A stretch of 58,684 bases of DNA, filler included, from Squatina squatina (taxonomy: Eukaryota): assembly GCA_031763465.1 (NCBI GenBank). It is 3 parts of 3 records of this genome, joined end to end, with 100 filler letters (N's around TTAATTAATTAA, not from the genome) between each part and the next. Parts side by side here need not be neighbours in the genome. Positions count along the whole stretch, not along the records: positions 46,174 to 58,684 come from JARFOE010000057.1; 2 more parts are not named here. The stretch is one strand, 5' to 3'. The notes beneath the pieces are model-generated. The model saw only the letters and a program-made list of their open reading frames with translations, did no database searches and had not been told where the DNA came from. Position numbers and translations under genes: made by a program. Numbering within the stretch: position 1 is the first letter of the stretch; every line of letters begins with the position of its first letter. Below, piece by piece: positions 13,686-58,079 of the stretch.

Positions 13686-13790
13686 CTTACGAAATACCAA
13701 AGACGTCGATGCAAGTTGTTGCGTTTAGACATTTATCAAAGGAGCGAAAAGTGTGTTTGTTGAACTTGATTTAATATAAATACCTAAACA

Positions 13791-15248
13791 ATGGGGACGG
13801 AACTCAGAAGCCCGGGCTCCGATAAATCAGAAGCTTCGGAAGATCAAGAGATGGTGGTGAATATTGGCGGGGTCCGTCACATTTTGTACGGGGATGTGCT
13901 GAACCGTTACCCGGAAAGCAGACTGGCAGAACTGCTAAACTGCAGTGGATACGAAGCGATCTTCTCCCTTTGCGATGACTACGATCCGAACAAAGAAGAG
14001 TTCTACTTCGACCGAGACCCGGACTCTTTCAAATGTGTACTGGACGTCTACTATTTCGGAGAAATCCACATGAAAAAGGGGATTTGCCCCATTTNNNNNN
14101 NNNNNNNNNNNNNNNNNNNNNNNNNNNNNNNNNNNNNNNNNNNNNNNNNNNNNNNNNNNNNNNNNNNNNNNNNNNNNNNNNNNNNNNNNNNNNNNNNNNN
14201 NNNNNNNNNNNNNNNNNNNNNNNNNNNNNNNNNNNNNNNNNNNNNNNNNNNNNNNNNNNNNNNNNNATTCCTCTGGAAACTGATGGAAAAGCCCGATTCG
14301 TCCTGTCCGGCCAGAGTGATTGCAGTTTTATCCTTTCTGTTTATTTTAATTTCATCCGTGGTGATGTGTGTGAGCACCATCCCTGACCTCCAAGTGACTG
14401 ATGAGGAAGGGAGCCCAATAGATCATCCAATCCTCGACTCCATCGAAACAGCGTGCATCGGCTGGTTCACAGCCGAGTATATACTCAGGCTGGTCTCGGC
14501 CCCCAACAAACTCAAATTTGTACTTTCTTTCATGAACATCATAGACGTGCTAGCGATTCTGCCTTTCTATGTGAGCCTGATCTTGACTACAGTCGGGGCA
14601 ACCCTGATGGAGCTGACTAATGTGCAGCAGGCGATTCAGGCTCTTCGGATCATGCGGATAGCGCGAATTTTTAAACTGGCGCGTCACTCCAGTGGTCTCC
14701 AAACACTCACTTACGCACTGAAAAGAAGCTTTAAAGAACTAGGCCTATTGCTTATGTACTTGGCAATTGGCATTTTCGTTTTTTCGGCTTTNNNNTTCAC
14801 CATGGAACAAAGCCACCCCGAAACCCTCTTCAAAAGCATCCCTCAGTCCTTCTGGTGGGCGATCATCACCATGACCACCGTTGGATACGGGGATATTTAC
14901 CCAAAGACAACTTTGGGAAAACTCAACGCAGCTATTAGCTTTCTCTGCGGTATCATAGCAATCGCGTTGCCTATCCATCCTATTATAAATAATTTTGTCA
15001 GATACTATAACAAGCAGAAAGTTTTGGAAACGGCTGCAAAACACGAACTTGAACTAATGGAGTTGAATGCTAAGGAAGGAGAGTTTGGCGATTCCAGAAA
15101 TGAACTGGTAGATATTGTGGTTACTAAAGCCAGAAGCAATAGTAATCTCTCGCACACTAACAGTCTACTAAATTCTTACAGCGGCACTTATTTTCCACTT
15201 TTATCAGAGGAAAAACTGCATCGAAATAGGCTTCAGAGCTGCAAATGA
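13791..15248 (+). CDS. KCNF1: Voltage-gated potassium channel modifier subunit Kv5.1 (single coding exon)
   Basis: 485-aa ORF with two N gaps: T1/BTB domain, S4 LRIMRIARIFKLARH, pore TTVGYGD, C-terminus EEKLHRNRLQSCK. Confidence 0.97.
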   Translation: MGTELRSPGSDKSEASEDQEMVVNIGGVRHILYGDVLNRYPESRLAELLNCSGYEAIFSLCDDYDPNKEEFYFDRDPDSFKCVLDVYYFGEIHMKKGICPIXXXXXXXXXXXXXXXXXXXXXXXXXXXXXXXXXXXXXXXXXXXXXXXXXXXXXXXXXXFLWKLMEKPDSSCPARVIAVLSFLFILISSVVMCVSTIPDLQVTDEEGSPIDHPILDSIETACIGWFTAEYILRLVSAPNKLKFVLSFMNIIDVLAILPFYVSLILTTVGATLMELTNVQQAIQALRIMRIARIFKLARHSSGLQTLTYALKRSFKELGLLLMYLAIGIFVFSAXXFTMEQSHPETLFKSIPQSFWWAIITMTTVGYGDIYPKTTLGKLNAAISFLCGIIAIALPIHPIINNFVRYYNKQKVLETAAKHELELMELNAKEGEFGDSRNELVDIVVTKARSNSNLSHTNSLLNSYSGTYFPLLSEEKLHRNRLQSCK

Positions 15249-16797: not shown

Positions 16798-17258
16798 TGA
16801 AAGAAAAATCTGCATTTATTAATCTGCCTTTCACAATCTCAGGACTTCCTAAAGTGCTCTACAGTCAATAAGTACTTTTTGAAGTGTAGTCGCTGTTGTA
16901 ACCTAGGAAACGTGGCTGCCAACTTGCGCACAGCAAGGTCCCACAAACAGTAATGTGATAATGACCAGATAATCTATTTAAGTGCTGTTAGTTGAGGGAT
17001 AAATGTTGGCCAGGACATTGGGAGAACTCCCCTGCTCTTCAACATAGTGCCAGGGGATCGTTTACGCCCACATGAGAGTGCAGACGGGGTGACCTCTGCT
17101 TAATGTCTCATGTCTCATCCGGAAGGCAGCGCGGCGCTCCCTCAGTACTGCCCTCCCCCAAGCAGGGCGCTCCCTCAGTACTGCTCCTGGATTATGGGAC
17201 CTGAACCCACAACCATCTGACTCCTCGGCGAGAGTGCTACCCACTGAGCCACACTGAC
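16798..17258 (-). mobile_element. tRNA-headed DeuSINE-like SINE (SacSINE1-like), near full length
   Basis: Reverse complement of the element at 26926-27360: Pol III A/B boxes, central ttgagggataaat..ggccaggac domain, aagtactttt tail. Confidence 0.8.
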
Positions 17259-26925: not shown

Positions 26926-27360
26926 ATGGCTCAGTGGTAGCACTCCTGCTTCTGAATCAGAAGGTTGTGGGTTCAAGTCCCAGTGCAGAAATTTGAGCAA
27001 ATAATCTAACACTTCAGCGCAGTACTGAACTGTCAGAGATGCTGTCTTTCGGATGAGACGTTAAACCGAGGCCCCGTCCGCCTCTCAGGCGGATGTAAAT
27101 TATCCCATGGCACTTTTCAAAGAAGAGCAGGCGAGTTCTCTCCAGTGTCCTGGCCAATATTTATCCCTCAACCAACATCAATTTAAAAAAAAACGGTTAT
27201 TTAGCCATTACCTCATTACTGTTCGTGGGACCTTGCTGTGCCGCATTGCCTGCATTACAACAGTGACTACACTTCAAAAGTACTTCATTGGCTGTAGAGC
27301 GCTTTGGGACATCCTGAGGTTGTGAAAGGCGTGATATAAATGGAATTCATTCTTTCTTCC
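26926..27360 (+). mobile_element. tRNA-headed DeuSINE-like SINE (SacSINE1-like), full length
   Basis: A box tggctcagtggt, B box gttcaagtcc, central ggatgagacgttaaaccgaggcccc domain, tail cttcaaaagtacttcattggctgt...tataaat. Confidence 0.85.
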
Positions 27361-28001
27361 ATAACCATTCTTTATGTGAGTATCTAAGCAGTAAATATCT
27401 GCAACTATGACGCAAAGGTAGCATCGAGTTCTATGCTCATCTAATGTCCGCAAACGATGACATTCCAGCAGGTATCACGAGGCAGAGCCTGGTTATTTTT
27501 CTCCCTGCGCAAGCCTGGGGCCATTGATGGCAGTTGTAGTATTGCCAAGCCCTAGTTGAGACCAACTGATTTGGCACACACGAGTGATCAATCCTAGCAC
27601 CTCCTTGATCTGTATGAAATGGACTTCAGAAAATTCTGCAAAGTACTGAGGCAATAAATTTCTCCAACTTCATTGTAAAAGATTCAGTGTTAATAATAGG
27701 CATTTTTAAATAGTTATTATTTATATAGCAACCTAAGACATGAGCATATATAATTAAAGAGTGCAAAGGAACGCAGTACTCATAGGATTAAAATAAATTA
27801 CTGGATACTGTCAAACTGGTTTGGAGATTTTACTCTAATGTTTATTTTTTTTAACTTCTGTGCCTCCAGCATATATATTGCAGGTGCTCATGTGAGAAGG
27901 ATTTCTCATGAAACGCACAGAATATCAAATCTATAAACACTCACTGACTGTGGGTTGTGCATTCAATGCAAAAATTCCAAAATCTATGTCCNNNNNNNNN
28001 N

Positions 28002-28444: not shown

Positions 28445-30193
28445 CTGCAAAATACAAATGAACTAAGCTTTACCAGCTCGTCGCTTATTAAAATCAAGTT
28501 TAAACTTGCTTAATAAAAACTGGTTGCATCAGTCGATGCTGGACCAATTTATAATGCTGCACTTTAACCATTTATTCATAGCATTAATACTTCACTAAAT
28601 ATTTAAAGTGTTAACAAAACACTGCACGTTAATGTCAGCCTCGATTGAGCTTAAGTCTTGGAGTGAGGCTTAAACGCACAACCATCTGACTCACAGGCAA
28701 GAGTGGTCACTGGGCCAAGGCTGGCATACAAATTAAACAGGGCCTGTCAGCATTAATTTCCAAAAGGCACATCATGCTTGACCAAATGTATATAATTTTT
28801 TGAAGAAACAGCAGAGAGGATAGATCTAGGAAGCACAGCAAATGTGGTTTTGATGAATTTTCAAAAAAACACAAGAGATGTGCCAAAGGTAACAGCATAT
28901 GGAAATAAGGGAAATATTACCACATTGATAGAGATGATATTTCAAAGCAAATGCTAAGGGTAAAAGACAGGACAGTTGTAAAGACTGATGTTTCATAGAG
29001 GACTCTGCTGGGGCCGCTCTTATGCTCTGGAAATTGANNNNNNNNNNNNNNNNNNNNNNNNNNNNNNNNNNNNNNNNNNNNNNNNNNNNNNNNNNNNNNN
29101 NNNNNNNNNNNNNNNNNNNNNNNNNNNNNNNNNNNNNAATTAAATGAAAGTAGGGTCACAAAAGGTCAAAGAAGTTCAATGGACGACATGAGCATTTTAA
29201 CTACACACAAATGGAACCTAATTCTAGCAAACTACTATTAAACTACTGCATTATTTCTGAAAAAATACAGAGAATACTTGGGGGAAGAGTGAACCATTAA
29301 ACAACTTGTCCACTTTTCATACATATGCATATAAAACCAGTGATCAGTTTTCAGAGTGTTCACAATATGTTTTTGGAGGAAGCTTTAAGAAAAAAATGTT
29401 TTTGTATTGTTGTGAAAAAGAGGGCAATTATCGGTGTTCTTTGAGATGACCCTTCCTCCTTAATCGCCACTTTTTCTTTGTAATAAAGTTTGTGCATTAT
29501 AAATTTTATGGGATGTCAGTTAATGGATAGCAGTATTGTGTTATTATTTAACTTGCCAGAGAAAGGGATAAATGGGTTTTACCACTCCTGTTGCTGTGAA
29601 TTAAAAATAAAATTGGACATAGTTATTTGATAGGAGCAAATCGCATGTCAGCCTGCTATGTTATCAATGCTTTAAAACAAACATTTTACTTTCCGACAAT
29701 CTTTTCAATCTCCTCTCCTGAAAGTTTTGACTGTTGCTGGAATATGGTTCACGTGGTGCTGAAGAACCTGCAGTATTTGTCCAAGTGACCATTATTATTG
29801 CGCACGCTTTAACAGTAACTGACAGTAAGCTATTCGATCACGGGGAGTATCCTGGCTGAGCCCGATTGTCCTTGGCTGATGTCCAGATGGCATTTTTATA
29901 GGGATTATTGAATAGCAATCAGGAGTCTGAATGGTTTTTCCCATCTTACACCAAGAAATCTTGAGGCCGGTTGTTGCGCCATTGCACTGGCCTGGTTGAG
30001 GTCAGCTAATTCAGCAAAGCATATGGATTTAGCCTGGGCCCTCTGCCCTTTGATGTCTTGGCTATTCACTGGATAAACTCAATTGGCTATTCGGGAGCAT
30101 ATATGTCATACATGTTTTTGTCATTTTTTCGTTTATACTTTCCAAAAAATATTGCATGCAAATTTCTAACGATAGCGCTCATTATTTATGCAG

Positions 30194-30327
30194 GTTTGGA
30201 AGACATTTTGAAGTGACCCTCCTGTTGCAGAGCATTGTCTTGATAATCACCATGCTGGCCTTGCTGCACTTGTGCTGTACTGTACAGAGATCTTCCAGAA
30301 TGAGCACCAGTAGACACTTTTTCACAG
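30194..30327 (+). CDS. SLC66A2/PQLC1-like PQ-loop protein, internal exon
   Basis: 134-bp exon FGRHFEVTLLLQSIVLIITMLALLHLCCTVQRSSRMSTSRHFFT; homologous to but distinct from recalled PQLC1 FGRRFESPLLWQS... Confidence 0.85.
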
Positions 30328-30439
30328 GTTTGCACCTTCATGTGTTGATAAAGATATATTTCATATATATATGGTGTTAAGTAGTTTGTCATTTTAGACA
30401 CCAAAGAAGAGAAGCTGAAATCATTTTTATGGAGTTGAT

Positions 30440-30698
30440 GAAATAAAGAAAGACTTGCATTTATATAGCGCCTTTCACGGCCACCGGACATCCCAAAGCA
30501 TTTTACAACCAATGAAGTACTTTTGAAGTGTAGTCGCTGTTGTAATGTAGTAAACATAGCAGCCAACTTAACACAAAAGCAATGTGATAATGACCAGGTA
30601 ATCTGTTTCAGTGATGTTGATTGAGGGATAAATATTGGCCAGGACACCGGGAATAACTGCCCTGCTCTTCTTCAAAATAGTGCCATGGGATGTTTTAC
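30440..30698 (-). mobile_element. DeuSINE-like SINE, 3' half
   Basis: aaagacttgcatttatatagcgcctttcac...aagtacttttgaagtgtagtc; same family as 26926-27360. Confidence 0.8.
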
Positions 30699-31634
30699 AA
30701 CAACAACTTGTATTTATATAGCGCCTTTAACCTAGTGAAATGTCCCAAGGTGCTTCACAGGAGTATTATGAGATTAAAAAATTGACACTGAGCCGCATAA
30801 GGAGAAATTAGGGCAGGTGACCAAAAGCTTGGTCAAAGAGGTAGGGGCCCGAATTTGGATGCCCCGAAATGGGCTGCTGAATTCGGGGTCCCGTAATCCA
30901 ATGTGCACCATGTCACTGGAAATGCACAGTGACGCGGACTTGGACTCTTTGTTGATGTGTCGGGCCAGCGTAATGTGGCATTACTGAATCAGCATTGCCA
31001 TGGCGCTGACCCGGCAGTGACCCGACCAAATCTGGTTTACGCCAACAGCGTGGCATGCGCAAGCCACAGCCCCGGGGCTTTTTCAAGGGTTCTTGCATGC
31101 CAGGGACCATGCCGGCAAGCGGGGGGAAGGTGGTCGTCGGAGATCGGCCGCCAGCGCAGGCCATGCACCTTTAAGGGCCCCTGACAACAACAGCAGAAGC
31201 CTGTCGTTGCCAGAGCCAGTGGCAGTAGTGTTGGGCAAGCTGCCTCCAATGCCAGAGGTGGGGTTGCAGGTGGAGAGGGGTCGGTGCGCAATGTTATGAC
31301 ATCACACGCCGGCCCCTGCAGCAGGGCCTGTTACGCTGGCGGCAGGGCATCTACGCTACCAACGTGACAGGCCCAGTTCTGTCATTTGAATTTTTAGGCC
31401 TCAAGGCTGATTTCATGCCCAGATATTGCCGCAAATCTGCGCAATCCAGTCATGAGGTCAGACGAATTGGGGCCCTATCGGTTTTAAGGAGCATCTTGAA
31501 GGAGGAAAGAGAGGCGGAGAGGTTTAAGCAGGGAATTCCAAAGCTTAGGGCCAAGGCAACAGAAGGCGCGGCCACCAAATGGTTGAACGATTATAATCAG
31601 GGATGCTCAAGAGGGCAGAATTAGAGGAGCGCAG
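30699..31634 (-). mobile_element. L2-type LINE 3' end, interrupted by a DNA transposon
   Basis: caacaacttgtatttatatagcgcc...ggtcaaagaggta at the left resumes as ggttttaaggagcatcttgaaggagg after 31478. Confidence 0.75.
30845..31475. mobile_element. GC-rich non-autonomous DNA transposon nested in L2
   Basis: Imperfect TIRs gggcccgaattt / gaattggggccc (10 of 12 pair); flanks tag / tat. Confidence 0.6.
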
Positions 31635-33319: not shown

Positions 33320-33730
33320 TCAATGTTGATAAATAAAAAGCCAATGCACGCAGAGGAAAAGAAGCAAAAGTCCAAACTCACGAATGCTGCGGCGGACTGT
33401 AAGTCCCAAAGTCTGAAGCCCAAGGGAGTGCCTAGCAAGGCGCATGACATAGAGAATTCTCAAGGCGCGCAATATTCGGAGGACCAGGCCTAATTTTTCC
33501 AAATAAATATTACTTCCTGAAGGTTTGTTGCTGTCCGCAGGTCCTTTGTCAACCAAAAGTGAAACATAATACGGTAGAATTGCTAATATGTCAATAATGT
33601 TCAAAGGGCCTCTCAGAAACTGCCATTTGCTTCGAGCCTGGATAAACCGAAGCACAAACTCCAAGGAGAACCAGGCCACACAGATGGTTTCTATTATAAA
33701 CATGTTATAGCACCTCTGGGAACATTTATC
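33320..33730 (-). CDS. KCNG4: Kv6.4 modifier subunit, S2-S5 exon, apparently truncated
   Basis: ctacag acceptor then DKCSQRCYNMFIIETICVAWFSLEF...LRALRILYVMRLARHSLGLQTLGLTVRR...FLCV; homology stops near 33347 and a stop follows; adjacent to WFDC1 as in human. Confidence 0.85.
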   Translation of the reverse strand, partial: DKCSQRCYNMFIIETICVAWFSLEFVLRFIQARSKWQFLRGPLNIIDILAILPYYVSLLVDKGPADSNKPSGSNIYLEKLGLVLRILRALRILYVMRLARHSLGLQTLGLTVRRSIREFGLLLLFLCVHWLFIYQH

Positions 33731-33879
33731 CTGTAGACAAAATGCAGAAAAAATTGCACAGCATTAATAATAATAAAAANNNNNNNNNNNNNNNNNNNNN
33801 NNNNNNNNNNNNNNNNNNNNNNNNNNNNNNNNNNNNNNNNNNNNNNNNNNNNNNNNNNNNNNNNNNNNNNNNNNNNNNN

Positions 33880-44429: not shown

Positions 44430-44831
44430 GAAAGGAGAAAAACTTGCATTTATATAGCACCTTTCATGACCACCGGACGTCCCAAAGCACTTTACAGCCA
44501 ATGAAGTACTTTTGAAGTGTAATCACTGTTGTAATGTAGGAAACGCTACAGCCAATTTGTGCACAGCAAGATCCCACAAACAGCAATGTGGTCATGGCCA
44601 GATAATCTGTTTGATGTTCGTTGAGGGACAAATATTGGCCAGGACACCGGGGATAACTCCTCTGCTCATCTTTGACATAGTGCCGTGGGAACTTTTACAT
44701 CCACCTGAGAGGGCAGACCGGAACTTGATTTATTGTCTCATCCGAAAGACGGCACCTCCGACAGTGCAGCGCTCCCTCAGCACTGCACTGGAGAGTCAGC
44801 CTAGATTTTTGTGCTCCAGTCCCTGGAGTGG
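44430..44831 (-). mobile_element. DeuSINE-like SINE
   Basis: Same tail and central domain as the other copies, ending in the tRNA-related region. Confidence 0.82.
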
Positions 44832-46129: not shown

Positions 46130-47467
46130 NNNNNNNNNNNNNNNNNNNNNNNNNNNNNNNNNNNNNNNNNNNNATTCTTAGAGAGGATGCCAGACAGGCT
46201 GTTCACCATAGTTGGCAAAAGAGGCAATTGCTCCATAAACACAGACAAGACTGAACAAAGCCAACATCACACCTGTGGGGTCAACAGTGGAGAGAAACAG
46301 ACCTTAGTGCTCACGTGGCTATAAAATAGACATTTTTTGGAAATGAAAAATAACTTGAACTCTTGAATTACCTTCCAAAGGAAGAGGCAGCCGCTCTAGG
46401 GTGAAGAGCAGAAAGCAGGTGATTATCACTTCCATGATGACAGTGGCTATGACTAGCGCTATATTAATATAACTGGCTGTGAGAGAGAGCACACAAAAAA
46501 TTAATTCCTCATGGATGGCAGGTATTGAAGTATACAGACTGAGCAGAATTGCAACTAAAACACTCACCTGAAATAACTAGAAACATGTTGACTATAAGGA
46601 AAGCTATGGCTCCTGCAGTGAATCCACCATCAGAACTGGGATCAATATTTAACAAATGACCTGCATAAAAATATGTATTTATGAGACTCATTACAAATAG
46701 TTATGAGTGTAAGCAAATAATACAATTGACAATACAAAGACTAATTTGAAGCAAGAAATGATGGCTGGGAATTTCCAGTGAAGGTTTGGTGGCAAGGACT
46801 GCTCCATGGAAATTTCCAGCCTGCTGAGAATTGATTGAGTTGGAACTTACTGTGAGAGATGCATTTGTGTGAAGTTTTAATACACCTGTAACAACTGCCT
46901 CTCTTTTCTATTTTAACAGAGGTGTTAACCTATATTAACATGAATTGATGCCACTGTTAAAATAGTGAAGAGAAACTCAAGATGTAAGTTGTTAAGCATT
47001 CATAACATTTCCAGAATAAAGAAAGAAGTGCTCATTAAATAGCTGTGTAGCAGAATGACAGTACAATACCAAAACACCTTCCTTCTTGTACTTGAATCCT
47101 GAATGCATAAAGCTAGACCAGGGATCTAGGGATCAGTACACTGGGAATCTTAAGACTTTGTCCATGCATACTTAATATATGTTATCTTATTATATCAGAA
47201 CTGAAAACAATAAAATCTATTTTCCAAATGATAGGGTTAAGGAATTTCCACAGCTGATTAGAATTCAAAATTTCTAATATCATCTCAGCTAGTTATGAAG
47301 AGTTTTTTATTGATGCATTCAATACTTTTCTTAGCATTGGAGCTACATCACCACCTTGAACTAAAGGTTGTAACTCACATTTAAAAATATTGTGATCTTC
47401 AGCTACTATGGCAATGTTTGGTGATAGTAAAAAAAAATGACATTTTGATTGAATTGTTTTTTAATAG

Positions 47468-47690
47468 ATTAATTTCCTGGACTGGAAGGAAGATTGACCC
47501 AGTGGGTGTGGACTATATTCTTCAAAAGCTGGGCTTCCATCATGCCAGAATCACTATTCCAAAATGGGTGCAGCGTGGTGTCATGGATCCATTAGATAAG
47601 GTTCTCTCGGTTCTTATTAAAAAGCTCGGCGTAGCACTACAGGATGAAAAAGAAAAGAAAGGAAAAGACAAGGAGGAACATCAAAAGTAA
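47468..47690 (+). CDS. BLTP1: Bridge-like lipid transfer protein 1 (KIAA1109), last coding exon
   Basis: aatag acceptor then LISWTGRKIDPVGVDYILQKLGFHHARITIPKWVQRGVMDPLDKVLSVLIKKLG...EHQK-stop; AT-rich 3' UTR with AATAAA at 48267-48272. Confidence 0.95.
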
Positions 47691-49356: not shown

Positions 49357-50820
49357 CTGCAAATCGAAGCCAGGTCCAAGTCGCCCAGACAGCTGCATAG
49401 CAGAAGGGTAATACAGAACCAAAGCGCCTTCCTCCTCGGACTTGAATCCTGGACACGTAGAGTTGGATCAGAGTTCCAGGGATCAGCACCCAGGGAATAG
49501 TGACATGAGCTTGGACCTGCTCCAAGTTTGCACTCTGGATGGCAGACAGGGCTGCCAGTCCATTGCAGATATAGAACCGGGCATCTGGAAGCTGCACAGT
49601 AGTAAAGTCTGGGAGCTCCTCAGTTTTGGTGAACCTTTGTTTAAGGGCAAATAGAACATTCTGAAACATTTTTGAAGAGAGGGGTTGGGGTCCAATAGGA
49701 ATCAGTGCCTTTTCTGTTATGGAGTTGATCAGGCTGGCAAATGTTACATAAAGGGATAGGGCTACATACATACAGCAAACAGCCCCAAAAAATCTGTAAT
49801 ATGATACACTGTTGATCTGAGGAATGGTGGAGATGGTGAGAAGGACAAAGAAGCCATTATGGATTATTTCAAGTTTGTTTCTATTCAGAGACATCAGACA
49901 TAAAATCAAAGCTGTGACCAAGAAAAACCAGTCTCCTGTCAGCCTGGCTCTGCTGCTATCTAAATTATCAACATTTATGAGGACAGTTAAAATGAACTCC
50001 TCCCAGGACTTCACAAGCCAGTACATACTATGGACACCAAATTTAGTGGCAAAGTAGACATCACTGCGCAAGTAACCATAGTAGCTGGCACAAAGCTGTG
50101 AAATAGAATTGATGCTGACCCACACAGCTCCCACATAAAATGATTTCATGTACCCAAAACAGTAAAAAGCAAAGATGAAGGGAGAAATTACACTGCANNN
50201 NNNNNNNNNNNNNNNNNNNNNNNNNNNNNNNNNNNNNNNNNNNNNNNNNNNNNNNNNNNNNNNNNNNNNNNNNNNNNNNNNNNNNNNNNNNNNNNNNNNN
50301 NNNNNNNNNNNNNNNNNNNNNNNNNNNNNNNNNNNNNNNNNNNNNNNNNNNNNNNNNNNNNNNNNNNNAGCTCCATAAAGCCCAAAGACAGCTATCACTA
50401 GTTCAAAGATTCCGGATACTATTAAAGCCCATTGGCTAAAGAGACCTACAGCCTCAAAAATGAGTGTAAGTGTTATGGCCCCAAACACAAAAGGCATGAT
50501 GTAATTAGTTGTAGCTGAACAGAAGGACAAAATAAATGCTACACTGATGTAGGCTACTAACCCTGCAACAGCTGATTCACGAATAGGAGGCAGAGCCATG
50601 CTTAGACTGTTATTTACAGCACTGGTGTTTTTTAGATACAGAGTGATGGAAGTGGCATTAAGAGGAGAGTTTGCTCCCAGAATAATCCGAGTTGCTCCAA
50701 AGCTGCTCCACAAAGCAGAGAATGCTATAAAGGCTGTGCCACCAAGATGGTCATATTTTCTGAAGGACATTAGCCCAGCAACAAGTTGTGCCACTCCACC
50801 AATCAATATAAGGTGAACAC
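49357..50820 (-). CDS. Large internal exon of a multi-pass membrane protein with tandem GPR1/FUN34/YaaH (SatP/Ady2, AceTr) like repeats
   Basis: ttttctag acceptor at 50821-50822 and gtatat donor at 49356; phase 1 at both ends; open frame across a 171-N gap; motifs GGVAQLVAGLMSFRKYDHLGGTAF and LYVTFASLINSITEKALIPIG. Confidence 0.85.
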
Positions 50821-51430: not shown

Positions 51431-51636
51431 GTCCACTCGATGGATTTCGATGATACCTGGCACCCCGCCACCCATCCCTCGGGAGCTGTACTGCCCGCTC
51501 TCCTAGCTGCTGTCCAGATGTTGCCTGCAAACTCCAAACCCAGTGGTCTTGACCTCCTGCTGGCCTTTAATGTGGGCGTAGAAATTCAGGGCAGGTTAAT
51601 GCGCTTCTCCCAGGAGGCGAACAACATCCCTAAGAG
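51431..51636 (+). CDS. Cis-aconitate decarboxylase-like (ACOD1/IRG1-like), penultimate coding exon
   Basis: 206-bp exon VHSMDFDDTWHPATHPSGAVLPALLA...GLDLLLAFNVGVEIQGRLMRFS...PKR; cag acceptor, gtaag donor. Confidence 0.95.
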
Positions 51637-53590: not shown

Positions 53591-54590
53591 GTTCCACCCT
53601 CCCAGTGTGGTTGGGACAATGGGCAGCGCTGCAGCCATAGCTAAATTGCTATCACTGAACCCCAACCAGTGTATTAATGCCCTGGCTATTGCAGCTTCAC
53701 TCTCAGGGGCACCAATGGCCAATGCAGCCACTCAGGCAAAACCCACCNNNNNNNNNNNNNNNNNNNNNNNNNNNNNNNNNNNNNNNNNNNNNNNNNNNNN
53801 NNNNNNNNNNNNNNNNNNNNNNNNNNNNNNNNNNNNNNNNNNNNNNNATGCAGCCACTCAGGCAAAACCCACCCATATTGGCAATGCCACACGGCTGGGC
53901 TTTGAGGCAGCCCTCCTTGCCTCTAAAGGAATGGAGGGAAATGTTAAAATTCTAGACAAAACCCCTGGCTGCTTTGGATTTTCTGCTTTCTATGGTGATT
54001 ATCAACCTCAGGAGATAGCATCACTTGAGCAGACACGATTTCTGCTAGAGGACCAAGACATTGCATTTAAGCGCTTCCCAGCTCATCTGGGCATGCACTG
54101 GGTGGTGGAAGCCGCTGCCTCAGTTAGGCAGTTGGTGACTGCCAATGATGGTGCCTTTTCACCCTCTATGATTGAAAGAATCATTCTGCGTGTTCCCATT
54201 TCACGCTACATCAACAGGCCGTTCCCAGAGACGGAACATGAGGCTCGCCATTCCTTCCAGTTTAATGCNNNNNNNNNNATTCAATCATTCAGTGAAAGTA
54301 AACTCCAACGAGATGATCTCCGTGAGTTACTCAACAAAGTGGAGCTTCAGCATCCTGAAGATAACTTGGCCAGTTTTGAGAAGATGTACGGAGAAGTTGT
54401 TCTGGTCCTCATGAACAGAGATGTGCTCAGTGGAAAATGTGAAACCTTCTACGGACACTGGAGAAATCCACTCTCTAGAGAATCACTGCTCAACAAATTC
54501 AAAAATAATGCTTCATATGTGTTAGAGCAGGACAAAATAGAAGCTATTATTGAGATCTGGTTAACAGCCAGAAAAGCTGCTGTAGACTAG
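53591..54590 (+). CDS. Cis-aconitate decarboxylase-like (ACOD1/IRG1-like), last coding exon
   Basis: aacag acceptor then [15 protein letters not shown]...AKPTHIGNA...[14 protein letters not shown]...[14 protein letters not shown]...FYGHWRNPL; two gaps; last ~10 codons suspect. Confidence 0.93.
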
Positions 54591-55480: not shown

Positions 55481-56304
55481 CTGTAAAATTAATAAGTTAT
55501 GCATTTAGGCATCCTGTCTCTTCTGGGGCCACTGTCACAATCATATGGTGGTTTCATTGAATAAGCAGTGGCCCTTGATAACCACATAGGTGCCTTCTTC
55601 ACTATTCACAAATACAATTTATTCCACTCTAAGAAAAATAAAGTAAAACAGAGAGAACAAAGGAGTTTCCACTCNNNNNNNNNNNNNNNNNNNNNNNNNN
55701 NNNNNNNNNNNNNNNNNNNNNNNNNNNNNNNNNNNNNNNNNNNNNNNNNNNNNNNNNNNNNNNNNNNNNNNNNNTTTCACAGGAGTCATTAGCAGCGTTG
55801 CGCCCGGGCTAGAAGTCGTTTGAACCCTGTTACCGCCGCCCGGGGACGCTAACAGGAGGCGCAAACGCCCTGAATTTCTCCCCCTACTACTAACGATCAC
55901 TGATTTTGGCTTAAGCAGGTAACTTGCTCAAAATACGCATAGAGACCAGTGACTTATCACTTGCCGGCACAGCCTTTCACCAACCATTGAGAAAAGTTCA
56001 GTAGCCAGAAAACAGGCTGCAAATCATACTTTTAAGCAACTGTGCAGGGGCAGTTGACCGTATTTTGCGGCTGATGCTGCAAAATCAGCCTCACAGTGAA
56101 AGTGGGATGCATTCAACAGTATCAGGACCTTAAAGCATTATAATAGGGGTATAAAACACATTTGAAGTGCATCATATACAGGGAGGATGCGGAAAAATGC
56201 CAGTTGCAGCAGAGTACCTTTTTAGTTGCATTAATTACCAGTATTAGATCATTTAAATACATATAAGATACATAAGATTCAAGAACAAAATGTCAATAAC
56301 TTAC

Positions 56305-56548
56305 AATGCATTTGTCGAAGTTGCGTTTGACGTGTACTAGAATGTTTCCAAATGTAGATTTGAGAAAAGAAGAAGGGTCACAATCTTGAACTGTCAGTGC
56401 ACGCTGGCTCACTATTACCAGTAAATGCAAGGAGTTGGAAGGGTTGATCTTGTCACATAGGTTTACAAACGCCTTTAGATCTAGTTCAAGTGTACTGAAT
56501 ATTTCACTCATCATTTTTCGTTTATTGCTTATACCAGGTTCTTCCTGC
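56305..56548 (-). CDS. Exocyst component 1 (Sec3)-like paralogue, internal exon
   Basis: 244-bp exon ...MMSEIFSTLELDL...DPSSFLKSTFGNILVHVKRNFDKCI; gtaagt donor. Confidence 0.88.
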
Positions 56549-56652
56549 CTAGTGGAAAACAAAATAAATAAAACCTGCAGCATAAATATTTTGATCATAA
56601 AGTGCATCTACTTGAAACTGTATATATCTTCACAATGAAACATAAAAATACA

Positions 56653-57326: not shown

Positions 57327-57482
57327 ACAGTATTAATTCAGTAGAAAGATCATCAGGAGTGGAAGAATGATCTGTTAGTTCTTCAGGTTTCAAGAATTAC
57401 ATATTCATAAAACACAGAAACCTATGGGAAAATGAGTTGTCATCTATTTTGAACATGAAAATCTTTATACAGTTCTGAGTAA

Positions 57483-57715
57483 AAAAGAAGAATTTGAATT
57501 TATATAGTGCCTTTTACAACCTCATAATGTCCCAAAGTGCTTCACAGCCAACGAAGTACTTTTGAAATGCAATGCAAGGAAATGCAGCGGCTAAAATGCA
57601 CACAGCAAGGACCAACAAACACAATATTTTTTTCGTGGTGTTGGATGAGGGATAAATATTGGCCAGGACATGGGGAGAACGTTCCCTCAGACCATCTCAT
57701 CCAAAAGACAACATC
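57483..57715 (-). mobile_element. DeuSINE-like SINE, 3' part
   Basis: tttatatagtgcctt...aagtacttttgaa...gagggataaatattggccaggaca. Confidence 0.75.
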
Positions 57716-57851
57716 NNNNNNNNNNNNNNNNNNNNNNNNNNNNNNNNNNNNNNNNNNNNNNNNNNNNNNNNNNNNNNNNNNNNNNNNNNNNNNNNNNNNN
57801 NNNNNNNNNNNNNNNACCCCACCCACCTTTAACATGACAGAGCTTACTTAC

Positions 57852-58079
57852 CACAAGAAAAATGACTTCCTCTAAAAGTTTTTGTTGGTTACAATCAATG
57901 ACTTGTAACTGGTAGTTGCTTTGGTGAATATGATCCATCTGTTCTTTAACACTCTGCAGCAGCTCTTCGTAGGTTTGAAGGGTCTCCTCAATGCTTTTCA
58001 CTTCAACAAGACCCACATCAATCAGCTCCATCATTTCAGTTACTTGCTTCTCAGACACAATGATTGATCGTATGTTTGC
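57852..58079 (-). CDS. Exocyst component 1 (Sec3)-like paralogue, internal exon
   Basis: 228-bp exon ANIRSIIVSEKQV...YEELLQSVKEQMDHI...KLLEEVIFLV; tttag acceptor, gtaagt donor. Confidence 0.9.

Follow-up and report, generated by a model that had tools for sequence, protein, structure and literature searches.

Exons of a triple-AceTr gene and an IRG1-like gene

On the minus strand of the third piece of our window lie exons 2 to 5 of a gene that is almost certainly this shark's version of vertebrate ATO, encoding three AceTr six-helix units per chain and a presumably cytosolic Sua5/YrdC domain; on the plus strand lie exons of an IRG1-like gene (irg1l, cis-aconitate decarboxylase-like). The window is the whole stretch of DNA analyzed, 58,684 nt of the Squatina squatina assembly GCA_031763465.1. 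This assembly is fragmentary: the window contains 45 N runs, most of them 100 bases long. Two spacers, each made of 12 bases with a stop in every frame between two runs of 44 N, divide the window into three pieces, the third running from 46174 to the end. The closest named relatives of both genes are from sharks.

Exon 2 spans 49357-50820 on the minus strand. Read from 50820 to 49357, its 1,464 nt run from an acceptor ending in TTCTAG to a GTATAT donor, with no stop in 487 codons. Fifty-seven of these codons are unreadable because of a 171-N run (50198-50368) that hides the end of unit 1, the linker, and the unit-2 signature; the Heterodontus protein P0002 has exactly 57 residues at this place. 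Exon 2 corresponds to residues 54-540 of P0002, with 387 of 430 readable residues identical. In the homologue search it matched Heterodontus at 80% and was orthologous to zebrafish si:ch211-153b23.3. The first-pass annotation had reported a spliced, open exon, along with several peptides and three N-glycosylation sequons (NAT, NTS, NNS), all of which are present in exon 2.

The remaining helices of unit 3 are encoded by three short minus-strand exons: exon 3 (46568-46660, 93 nt, AG/GT; TM4), exon 4 (46372-46476, 105 nt, AG/GT; TM5), and exon 5 (46207-46272, 66 nt; TM6). They are identical to P0002 at 28 of 30 (residues 542-571), 28 of 34 (573-606), and 18 of 21 residues (608-628), respectively. 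Exons 2 to 5, which contain portions of all three AceTr units, have canonical splice ends throughout and share a common phase. The donor of exon 5 is probably GTGAAC, and the following exon is not in the window. We considered exon 5 as decayed and dropped that reading because the GT donor is present in the phase of the other introns. Exon 1 and everything beyond residue 629, including the YrdC exons, fall outside the window. The earlier reading lacked the C-terminal Sua5/YrdC domain as well as the IRG1-like neighbor, and unit 3 ends in exons beyond the one it described.

The stretch around exon 3 holds two further features. The 3' end of exon 2 recurs as a decayed, partial copy at 47041-47148 on the minus strand, interrupted by an in-frame stop and matching 49391-49498 at 81 of 108 nt. 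It sits 380 nt ahead of exon 3; the similarity ends there, and exons 3 to 5 are intact. Between exons 2 and 3, at 47468-47690 on the plus strand, lies what looks like an intact final exon of BLTP1 (Pfam BLTP1_C, E 1e-43), on the same gap-free stretch as exons 3 to 5. The channel gene and BLTP1 may interleave on opposite strands; otherwise a local duplication or a mis-join has occurred.

Elsewhere in the window, we found voltage-gated potassium channel exons (BTB_2 and Ion_trans) at 13788-15248 (plus strand) and 33320-33763 (minus strand), which we take to be KCNF1-like and KCNG2-like; 30054-30377 (plus strand), without a Pfam match, is presumably SLC66A2/PQLC1-like. Exocyst Sec3/EXOC1 exons lie on the minus strand at 56293-56607 (Pfam Sec3_C-term) and 57687-58079. 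A dispersed 200- to 350-nt repeat, probably a SINE, occurs in five copies that are 68 to 81% alike (16800-17154, 27025-27362, 30438-30699, 44436-44789, and 57481-57680).

Three AceTr units and a C-terminal YrdC domain

The homologue search gave 220 relatives. Among the 120 listed, several are named si:ch211-153b23.3 and most are 865 to 877 amino acids long (about 875), and they come from sharks, rays, coelacanth, amphibians, turtles, lizards, birds, platypus, and bony fishes. Full-length relatives also occur in amphioxus, scallop, oyster, platypus, and echidna. A full-library search returned 21 matches; the 10 looked up included amphioxus, scallop, oyster, other fishes, the paralogue si:ch211-153b23.4, and a single-unit red-algal member. 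In all 12 full-length relatives scanned, three sharks (P0002, P0003, and P0005) among them, the protein opens with PF01184 and closes with PF01300 (Sua5/YrdC), and 8 of the 12 pass the curated PF01184 cut-off.

In the window, unit 1 is represented by TM2-TM6 (50369-50820, minus strand), and its TM1, with the signature variant FYSEPGVLGL, belongs to exon 1. The unit-1 piece matched PF01184 with 26.6 bits (cut-off 25; E 5.5e-6), and exon 2 in its entirety scored 21.5 bits, below the cut-off. Within unit 1, a 31-residue stretch aligned without gaps to E. coli SatP (PDB 5ZUG) at E 0.0024 among 177,635 sequences, with 13 of 31 residues identical as counted from the printed alignment, in agreement with the first-pass annotation. 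The putative SatP-like C-terminal peptide aligned with the end of the red-algal single-unit member and fell within the structural alignment to SatP chain 5YS3.

Unit 2 (49682-50197) and TM1-TM3 of unit 3 (49357-49600) follow on the minus strand. The unit-2/3 piece alone matched no Pfam family, so repeats 2 and 3 had to be recognized by profiles. In profile-profile comparisons built from 85 relatives, unit 1 matched unit 2 (96.8%, E 2e-10, 175 columns, score 70), unit 2 matched unit 3 (97.2%, E 4e-11, 176 columns, score 73), and unit 1 matched unit 3 (83.4%, E 8e-6, 138 columns, score 42). Among the controls, no score exceeded 22.5 when the columns of each pair were shuffled 30 times, and 6 reversed-column comparisons reached 16.2 at the highest. 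The profiles of units 1 to 3 also matched the algal single-unit protein (E 4e-9, 8e-14, and 1e-12 in a two-sequence database; 0.1 to 2 when reversed), but this is no independent test, because the algal protein was itself found with units 2 and 3.

The structure predicted for the Heterodontus protein (pLDDT 72) has three sets of six long helices, the last of them unit 3, and a lower-confidence alpha/beta domain. Its residues 11-230 (unit 1) superimposed on SatP 5YS8 with Z 20.0 and rmsd 3.1 over 178 aligned residues. We modeled the window's own unit 2 and half of unit 3 (pLDDT 87.9; three helices of unit 3), and the best of 48,161 chains for unit 2 was SatP 5YS3 (Z 15.5, rmsd 3.5, 173 aligned). 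The second structural match for unit 2 was the Helicobacter urea channel UreI (Z 11.0), followed by human TMEM45A at Z 8.0, which falls within the noise expected of helical bundles. Foldseek returned nothing at E <= 0.001 for the unit-2/3 model, yet its six best rows were SatP chains. When units 3 and 1 were predicted together as a probe of ring closure, the score was 0.05 (mark 0.34).

The first-pass annotation had proposed a covalently concatenated AceTr protein in a vertebrate, with a glycosylated unit-1 loop, and the Pfam, profile, structural, and sequon evidence bears this out. It had also implied at least three fused units; the three are borne out by profiles and model, and more than three are ruled out, since YrdC follows unit 3 both in the model and in Pfam. 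Channel activity of the units is what their fold would predict.

The C-terminal domain (residues 656-870 of the Heterodontus model) matched Sua5 at Z 13.1, with a profile match to Sua5/TsaC (PF01300; structures 9D3H and 6F87) at E 3e-20. Its K-x-R/S-x-N ATP-binding tetrad is intact in relatives (K708, R710, S801, and N803 of P0002), with K in 69, R in 67, S in 65, and N in 65 of 72 rows, 3 to 6 rows being gaps. This is the best-conserved region of the protein: 61% of its columns are at least 90% conserved, versus 33 to 47% in the membrane units. An ESM Atlas search with the domain returned generic bacterial threonylcarbamoyladenylate synthases. In the teleost paralogue si:ch211-153b23.4 (P0140 and P0145), K-x-Q replaces K-x-R and pore residues are altered, by an uncertain alignment; this paralogue, co-induced with.3, is possibly a partly inactive partner subunit. 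Among P0004, P0007, P0285, and P0431, the Stegostoma gene model stops just past exon 2, and in two rays, Narcine and Pristis, the YrdC part is annotated as a separate protein. Either these models are faulty annotations or the gene is truly split in some cartilaginous fishes.

An altered gate and a loop with N-glycosylation sequons

AceTr motifs have been described previously (PMC6004061 and PMC8379382). The NPAPLGL signature, hidden in the window by the missing exon 1 and the N run, reads EPGVLGL in unit 1 and EPMALG in unit 2 of relatives and is largely lost in unit 3 (PDALFY). Candida AceTr members are reported to deviate from NPAPLGL in up to 4 of 7 residues (PMC13316224).

By alignment, EPGVLGL and Asn23 of the relatives are the counterparts of the signature and the gate Phe of SatP, and we transferred the gate positions to units 2 and 3 via unit alignments. 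Across 72 relatives, the gate Phe position holds Asn in unit 1 (69/72), Asp, Ser, Asn, or Glu in unit 2 (72/72), and Asn in unit 3 (72/72); the Asn, Asp/Ser, and Asn of units 1 to 3 hold in amphioxus and bivalves too. The gate Leu position is Ile or Leu in unit 1 and Leu, Val, or Met in unit 2, and the gate Tyr position is Phe/Tyr, His, and Tyr/Phe in units 1 to 3, with His in unit 2 of all 72. By alignment, then, the hydrophobic F-L-Y constriction is not retained. This argues for a changed selectivity and makes a canonical acetate channel less likely, while leaving homology unaffected. Itaconate is methylene-succinate. In yeast Ato1, the F98A substitution is reported to confer growth on succinate, and the gate Tyr position to require an aromatic residue. 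With His in place of the gate Tyr in unit 2, not every pore need conduct.

The TM3-TM4 loop of unit 1 (50579-50686, minus strand) carries the three sequons. At least one sequon lies in this loop in 70 of 72 relatives, with a mean of 2.1 of the 5.1 sequons per protein. Both termini of AceTr proteins are described as intracellular (PMC8379382); if that topology holds, the loop lies outside the cell. The retention of sequons there suggests that the family protein traverses the secretory pathway with its YrdC domain in the cytosol.

An IRG1-like gene lies next door

Two exons of irg1l lie on the plus strand: an internal exon at 51431-51636 (residues 120-188; 94% to Heptranchias irg1l P0158) and the last exon at 53591-54590, which has N runs and encodes MmgE/PrpD domains (Pfam PF03972 and PF19305; 84 to 90% to shark irg1l). 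Their best matches are shark proteins named immunoresponsive gene 1, like. The same 26 bases stand on either side of a 100-N gap within an irg1l exon, so at least that join is of truly adjacent sequence. The channel gene and irg1l point apart, and the first exons of both fall in the one gap between them, an arrangement that fits a head-to-head pair.

We looked up gene order in 10 species pairs, judging adjacency from accession numbers or locus tags, and identifiers were adjacent or within 3 in six: Narcine, Rhineura, Conger, Scleropages (25,743-bp contig), Sakesphorus (90,857 bp), and Gallus. For Conger this holds for the GenBank tags; the RefSeq numbers differ by 140, so numbering of this kind can mislead about gene order. 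The tail that extends the Conger gene model was rejected as a cluster gene, as it resembles reverse-transcriptase-related sequence. The tags are also adjacent in Aldrovandia, and Danionella has both genes on one 631-kb contig. The four pairs that were non-adjacent by number were Spea, Xenopus, the monotremes, and Pristis. In Xenopus tropicalis and Hymenochirus the tags are about 85 to 95 loci apart, and in Engystomops they are far apart.

Equal-sized contigs held both genes in 35 of 44 species with both records; the other nine differed, several being clearly different assemblies. This tally was made by hand and omits one ambiguously named species and those lacking a contig size for either gene; two of its rows rely on the.4 paralogue and seven on YrdC-only fragments. 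A common large chromosome is weak evidence of linkage. The channel gene and IRG1L are both kept in platypus and echidna, and neither was seen in a therian among the named matches listed (best 120).

We also looked for a bacterial source of the cluster. The 48 GTDB loci found matched the YrdC part only, at 24 to 35% identity, and none carried an IRG1-like gene. Among 2,327 open frames at these loci, none matched IRG1L, unit 1, unit 2, or the single-unit AceTr protein, and one matched unit 3 marginally (E 0.01). These figures hold for loci carrying the two search patterns, and a prokaryotic source may lie outside them.

Co-induction in zebrafish

Published zebrafish data place the channel genes with irg1l. 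In table rows of PMC8877790 (18 conditions, 16 rows), irg1l correlated with si:ch211-153b23.3,.4, and.5 at r = 0.88, 0.90, and 0.86, and with the remaining ten rows at r -0.47 to 0.50. It was equally close to sult5a1 (0.91) and si:ch211-207n23.2 (0.90), so the co-induction is not specific. Three of the five hub genes reported for one co-expression module are irg1l,.3, and.5 (PMC11140123). In other reports, irg1l,.4, and.5 appear in the same list of genes after Shigella infection (PMC6980646) and are among the top five genes induced by PFOS (PMC9228135), and.3 is listed as down in a mutant, without irg1l (PMC11489432).

A candidate role in the IRG1L/itaconate module

The architecture itself is already published. 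Ghasemi et al. (iScience 2026, PMC13316224; also a 2025 preprint) describe a vertebrate triplicated Gpr1/Fun34/YaaH protein of about 900 amino acids fused to Sua5/YrdC and propose a dimer that closes a six-domain ring, so the novelty implied by the first-pass annotation does not hold. IRG1 and itaconate had no occurrences in the available text of that paper or in one supplement. Separately, Szeligowski et al. (bioRxiv 2022.06.17.496652) report genes for VOC, YrdC, 2Fe(II) oxygenase, and GAT domains beside IRG1L and the paleo-IRG1 of molluscs and amphioxus. They further report that therians have no IRG1L and that zebrafish IRG1L forms itaconate and is located in the mitochondrial matrix. Their YrdC neighbor is very probably this gene or its paralogue; in the parts of the preprint available, it is labeled by its YrdC domain only, with no mention of a transporter and no functional link proposed. 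We found no literature linking AceTr proteins with IRG1L in titles and abstract openings, a search whose coverage excluded most subscription papers. In the literature searched, the IRG1L neighborhood, the co-induction, and the monotreme retention of the triple-AceTr gene were not found in print.

Joining the triple-AceTr-YrdC protein to the YrdC gene beside IRG1L suggests a concrete candidate function: the protein would be a glycosylated channel-enzyme for carboxylates, inducible in immune responses, that serves the IRG1L/itaconate module. We put the probability of this reading at roughly 45%. The protein would be glycosylated and reside at the plasma membrane or in the secretory pathway, and it would be induced together with IRG1L as part of the latter's immune module. 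Each unit may retain its own pore, two chains forming a six-pore ring like the SatP hexamer. The Phe-to-Asn/Asp changes would make the gate wider and more polar, allowing itaconate or a related small dicarboxylate to pass through the membrane, the simplest routes being exit from the cell that makes it or entry into a vacuole. The YrdC domain, with its ATP-binding tetrad intact, might adenylate or carbamoylate a small substrate at the pore mouth. Several points weigh against this reading. IRG1L is in the mitochondrial matrix, so it cannot be physically coupled to the channel. Mammals export itaconate through ABCG2 and import it through SLC13A3 (PMC11773213), so a dedicated channel is not required. 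In addition, itaconate export leaves the YrdC domain, the best-conserved part, unexplained, and adjacency is broken in frogs.

In a close rival reading, IRG1L, the channel-enzyme, and the neighboring VOC, Fe(II) oxygenase, and glutamine amidotransferase genes form a small biosynthetic cluster that makes a modified antimicrobial metabolite, the cargo then not being free itaconate. Here YrdC would form a carbamoyl-adenylate, like the YrdC-like domains of TobZ and HypF, and the channel would export the product or supply the substrate. Such a cluster is favored by the intact tetrad in the domain under strongest constraint, by the service of a TsaC-like domain for carbamoylation in TobZ, by the recurrence of the four domain genes beside both paleo-IRG1 and IRG1L, and by the co-induction of.3,.4, and.5 with irg1l. 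We nevertheless consider it somewhat unlikely, given that the preprint authors saw no obvious functional clustering and that the 48 bacterial YrdC loci offered no IRG1-like gene and one marginal unit-3 match. Another proposal, and in our judgment a distinctly unlikely one, is an ordinary acetate/monocarboxylate (or bicarbonate) channel with a second t6A-type Sua5 enzyme, its linkage to IRG1L inherited and inflammatory enhancers shared. The non-adjacency in several frogs agrees with this, characterized AceTr members carry acetate, lactate, and succinate, and PMC13316224 suggests import coupled to Sua5-like catalysis. Linkage is reported from oyster to birds, however, with a matching loss in therians. 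None of the three units keeps the gate Phe that goes with acetate selectivity. Moreover, this gene is inducible, unlike t6A synthesis, a housekeeping task for which a separate YRDC gene exists.

Alterations of NPAPLGL and the F-L-Y gate in every unit, with the unit-3 signature mostly lost, might instead mark a non-conducting sensor or anchor, whose membrane units bind carboxylate or merely hold YrdC at the membrane. The replacement residues are almost invariant from oyster to bird, though, and the pore-lining Gln and Trp are retained in all units, a pattern that fits selection on a pore, and we regard a non-conducting protein as highly improbable. For this shark alone, the copy could be damaged or truncated within a real family. 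It has Arg in place of Leu467, a residue conserved at 97%, and departs from the family at 5 of 160 conserved columns, against a median of 3 and a maximum of 15 among family members; the decayed exon-2 end and the BLTP1 exon precede exon 3; and exon 1 and the YrdC exons are absent from the window. Damage is very unlikely in our view, because all four exons read through without a stop, are bounded by canonical splice sites in a consistent phase, and are 79 to 97% identical to those of other sharks; in so fragmentary an assembly, missing exons prove nothing.

Returning to the channel-enzyme serving IRG1L, a broader scenario would have non-therian animals keep an ancient immune-inducible itaconate cluster, in which IRG1L stands head-to-head with its own channel-enzyme, a polar-gated triple AceTr pore passing itaconate or a derivative that the fused adenylating YrdC domain, with neighboring tailoring enzymes, makes or activates. 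This larger picture is tentative and rather doubtful as a whole; it would mean that marsupials and placentals lost an animal biosynthetic-and-export cluster, and it would provide the first substrate for any animal AceTr protein. Should the candidate function itself hold, the route by which fish, amphibians, reptiles, birds, and shellfish move or modify itaconate would be one lost in therian mammals, with consequences for how immunometabolism evolved and for immunity in aquaculture and poultry. The IRG1L link and the re-tuned gate, which this analysis adds, make the putative function directly testable.

Comparison with known systems

The shark gene belongs to the same family as the vertebrate ATO proteins of PMC13316224, including zebrafish si:ch211-153b23.3. 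That paper describes the family's distribution as "except mammals", whereas we find the gene in platypus and echidna. With SatP (E. coli 5ZUG; C. koseri 5YS3 and 5YS8) and yeast Ato1/Ady2, the shark protein shares the six-helix fold, and its family shares with SatP/Ato1 the TM1-TM3 sequence pattern, the Gln in TM2, and the Trp in TM3. The family differs from SatP/Ato1 in having three units per chain, a putatively glycosylated loop, and a fused enzyme. The YrdC domain has the fold and K-x-R/S-x-N tetrad of the Sua5/TsaC threonylcarbamoyl-AMP synthases; it is about 25 to 35% identical to the bacterial enzymes, with a putative activity. Unlike Sua5/TsaC, this gene has only the TsaC-like domain, attached to a membrane protein.
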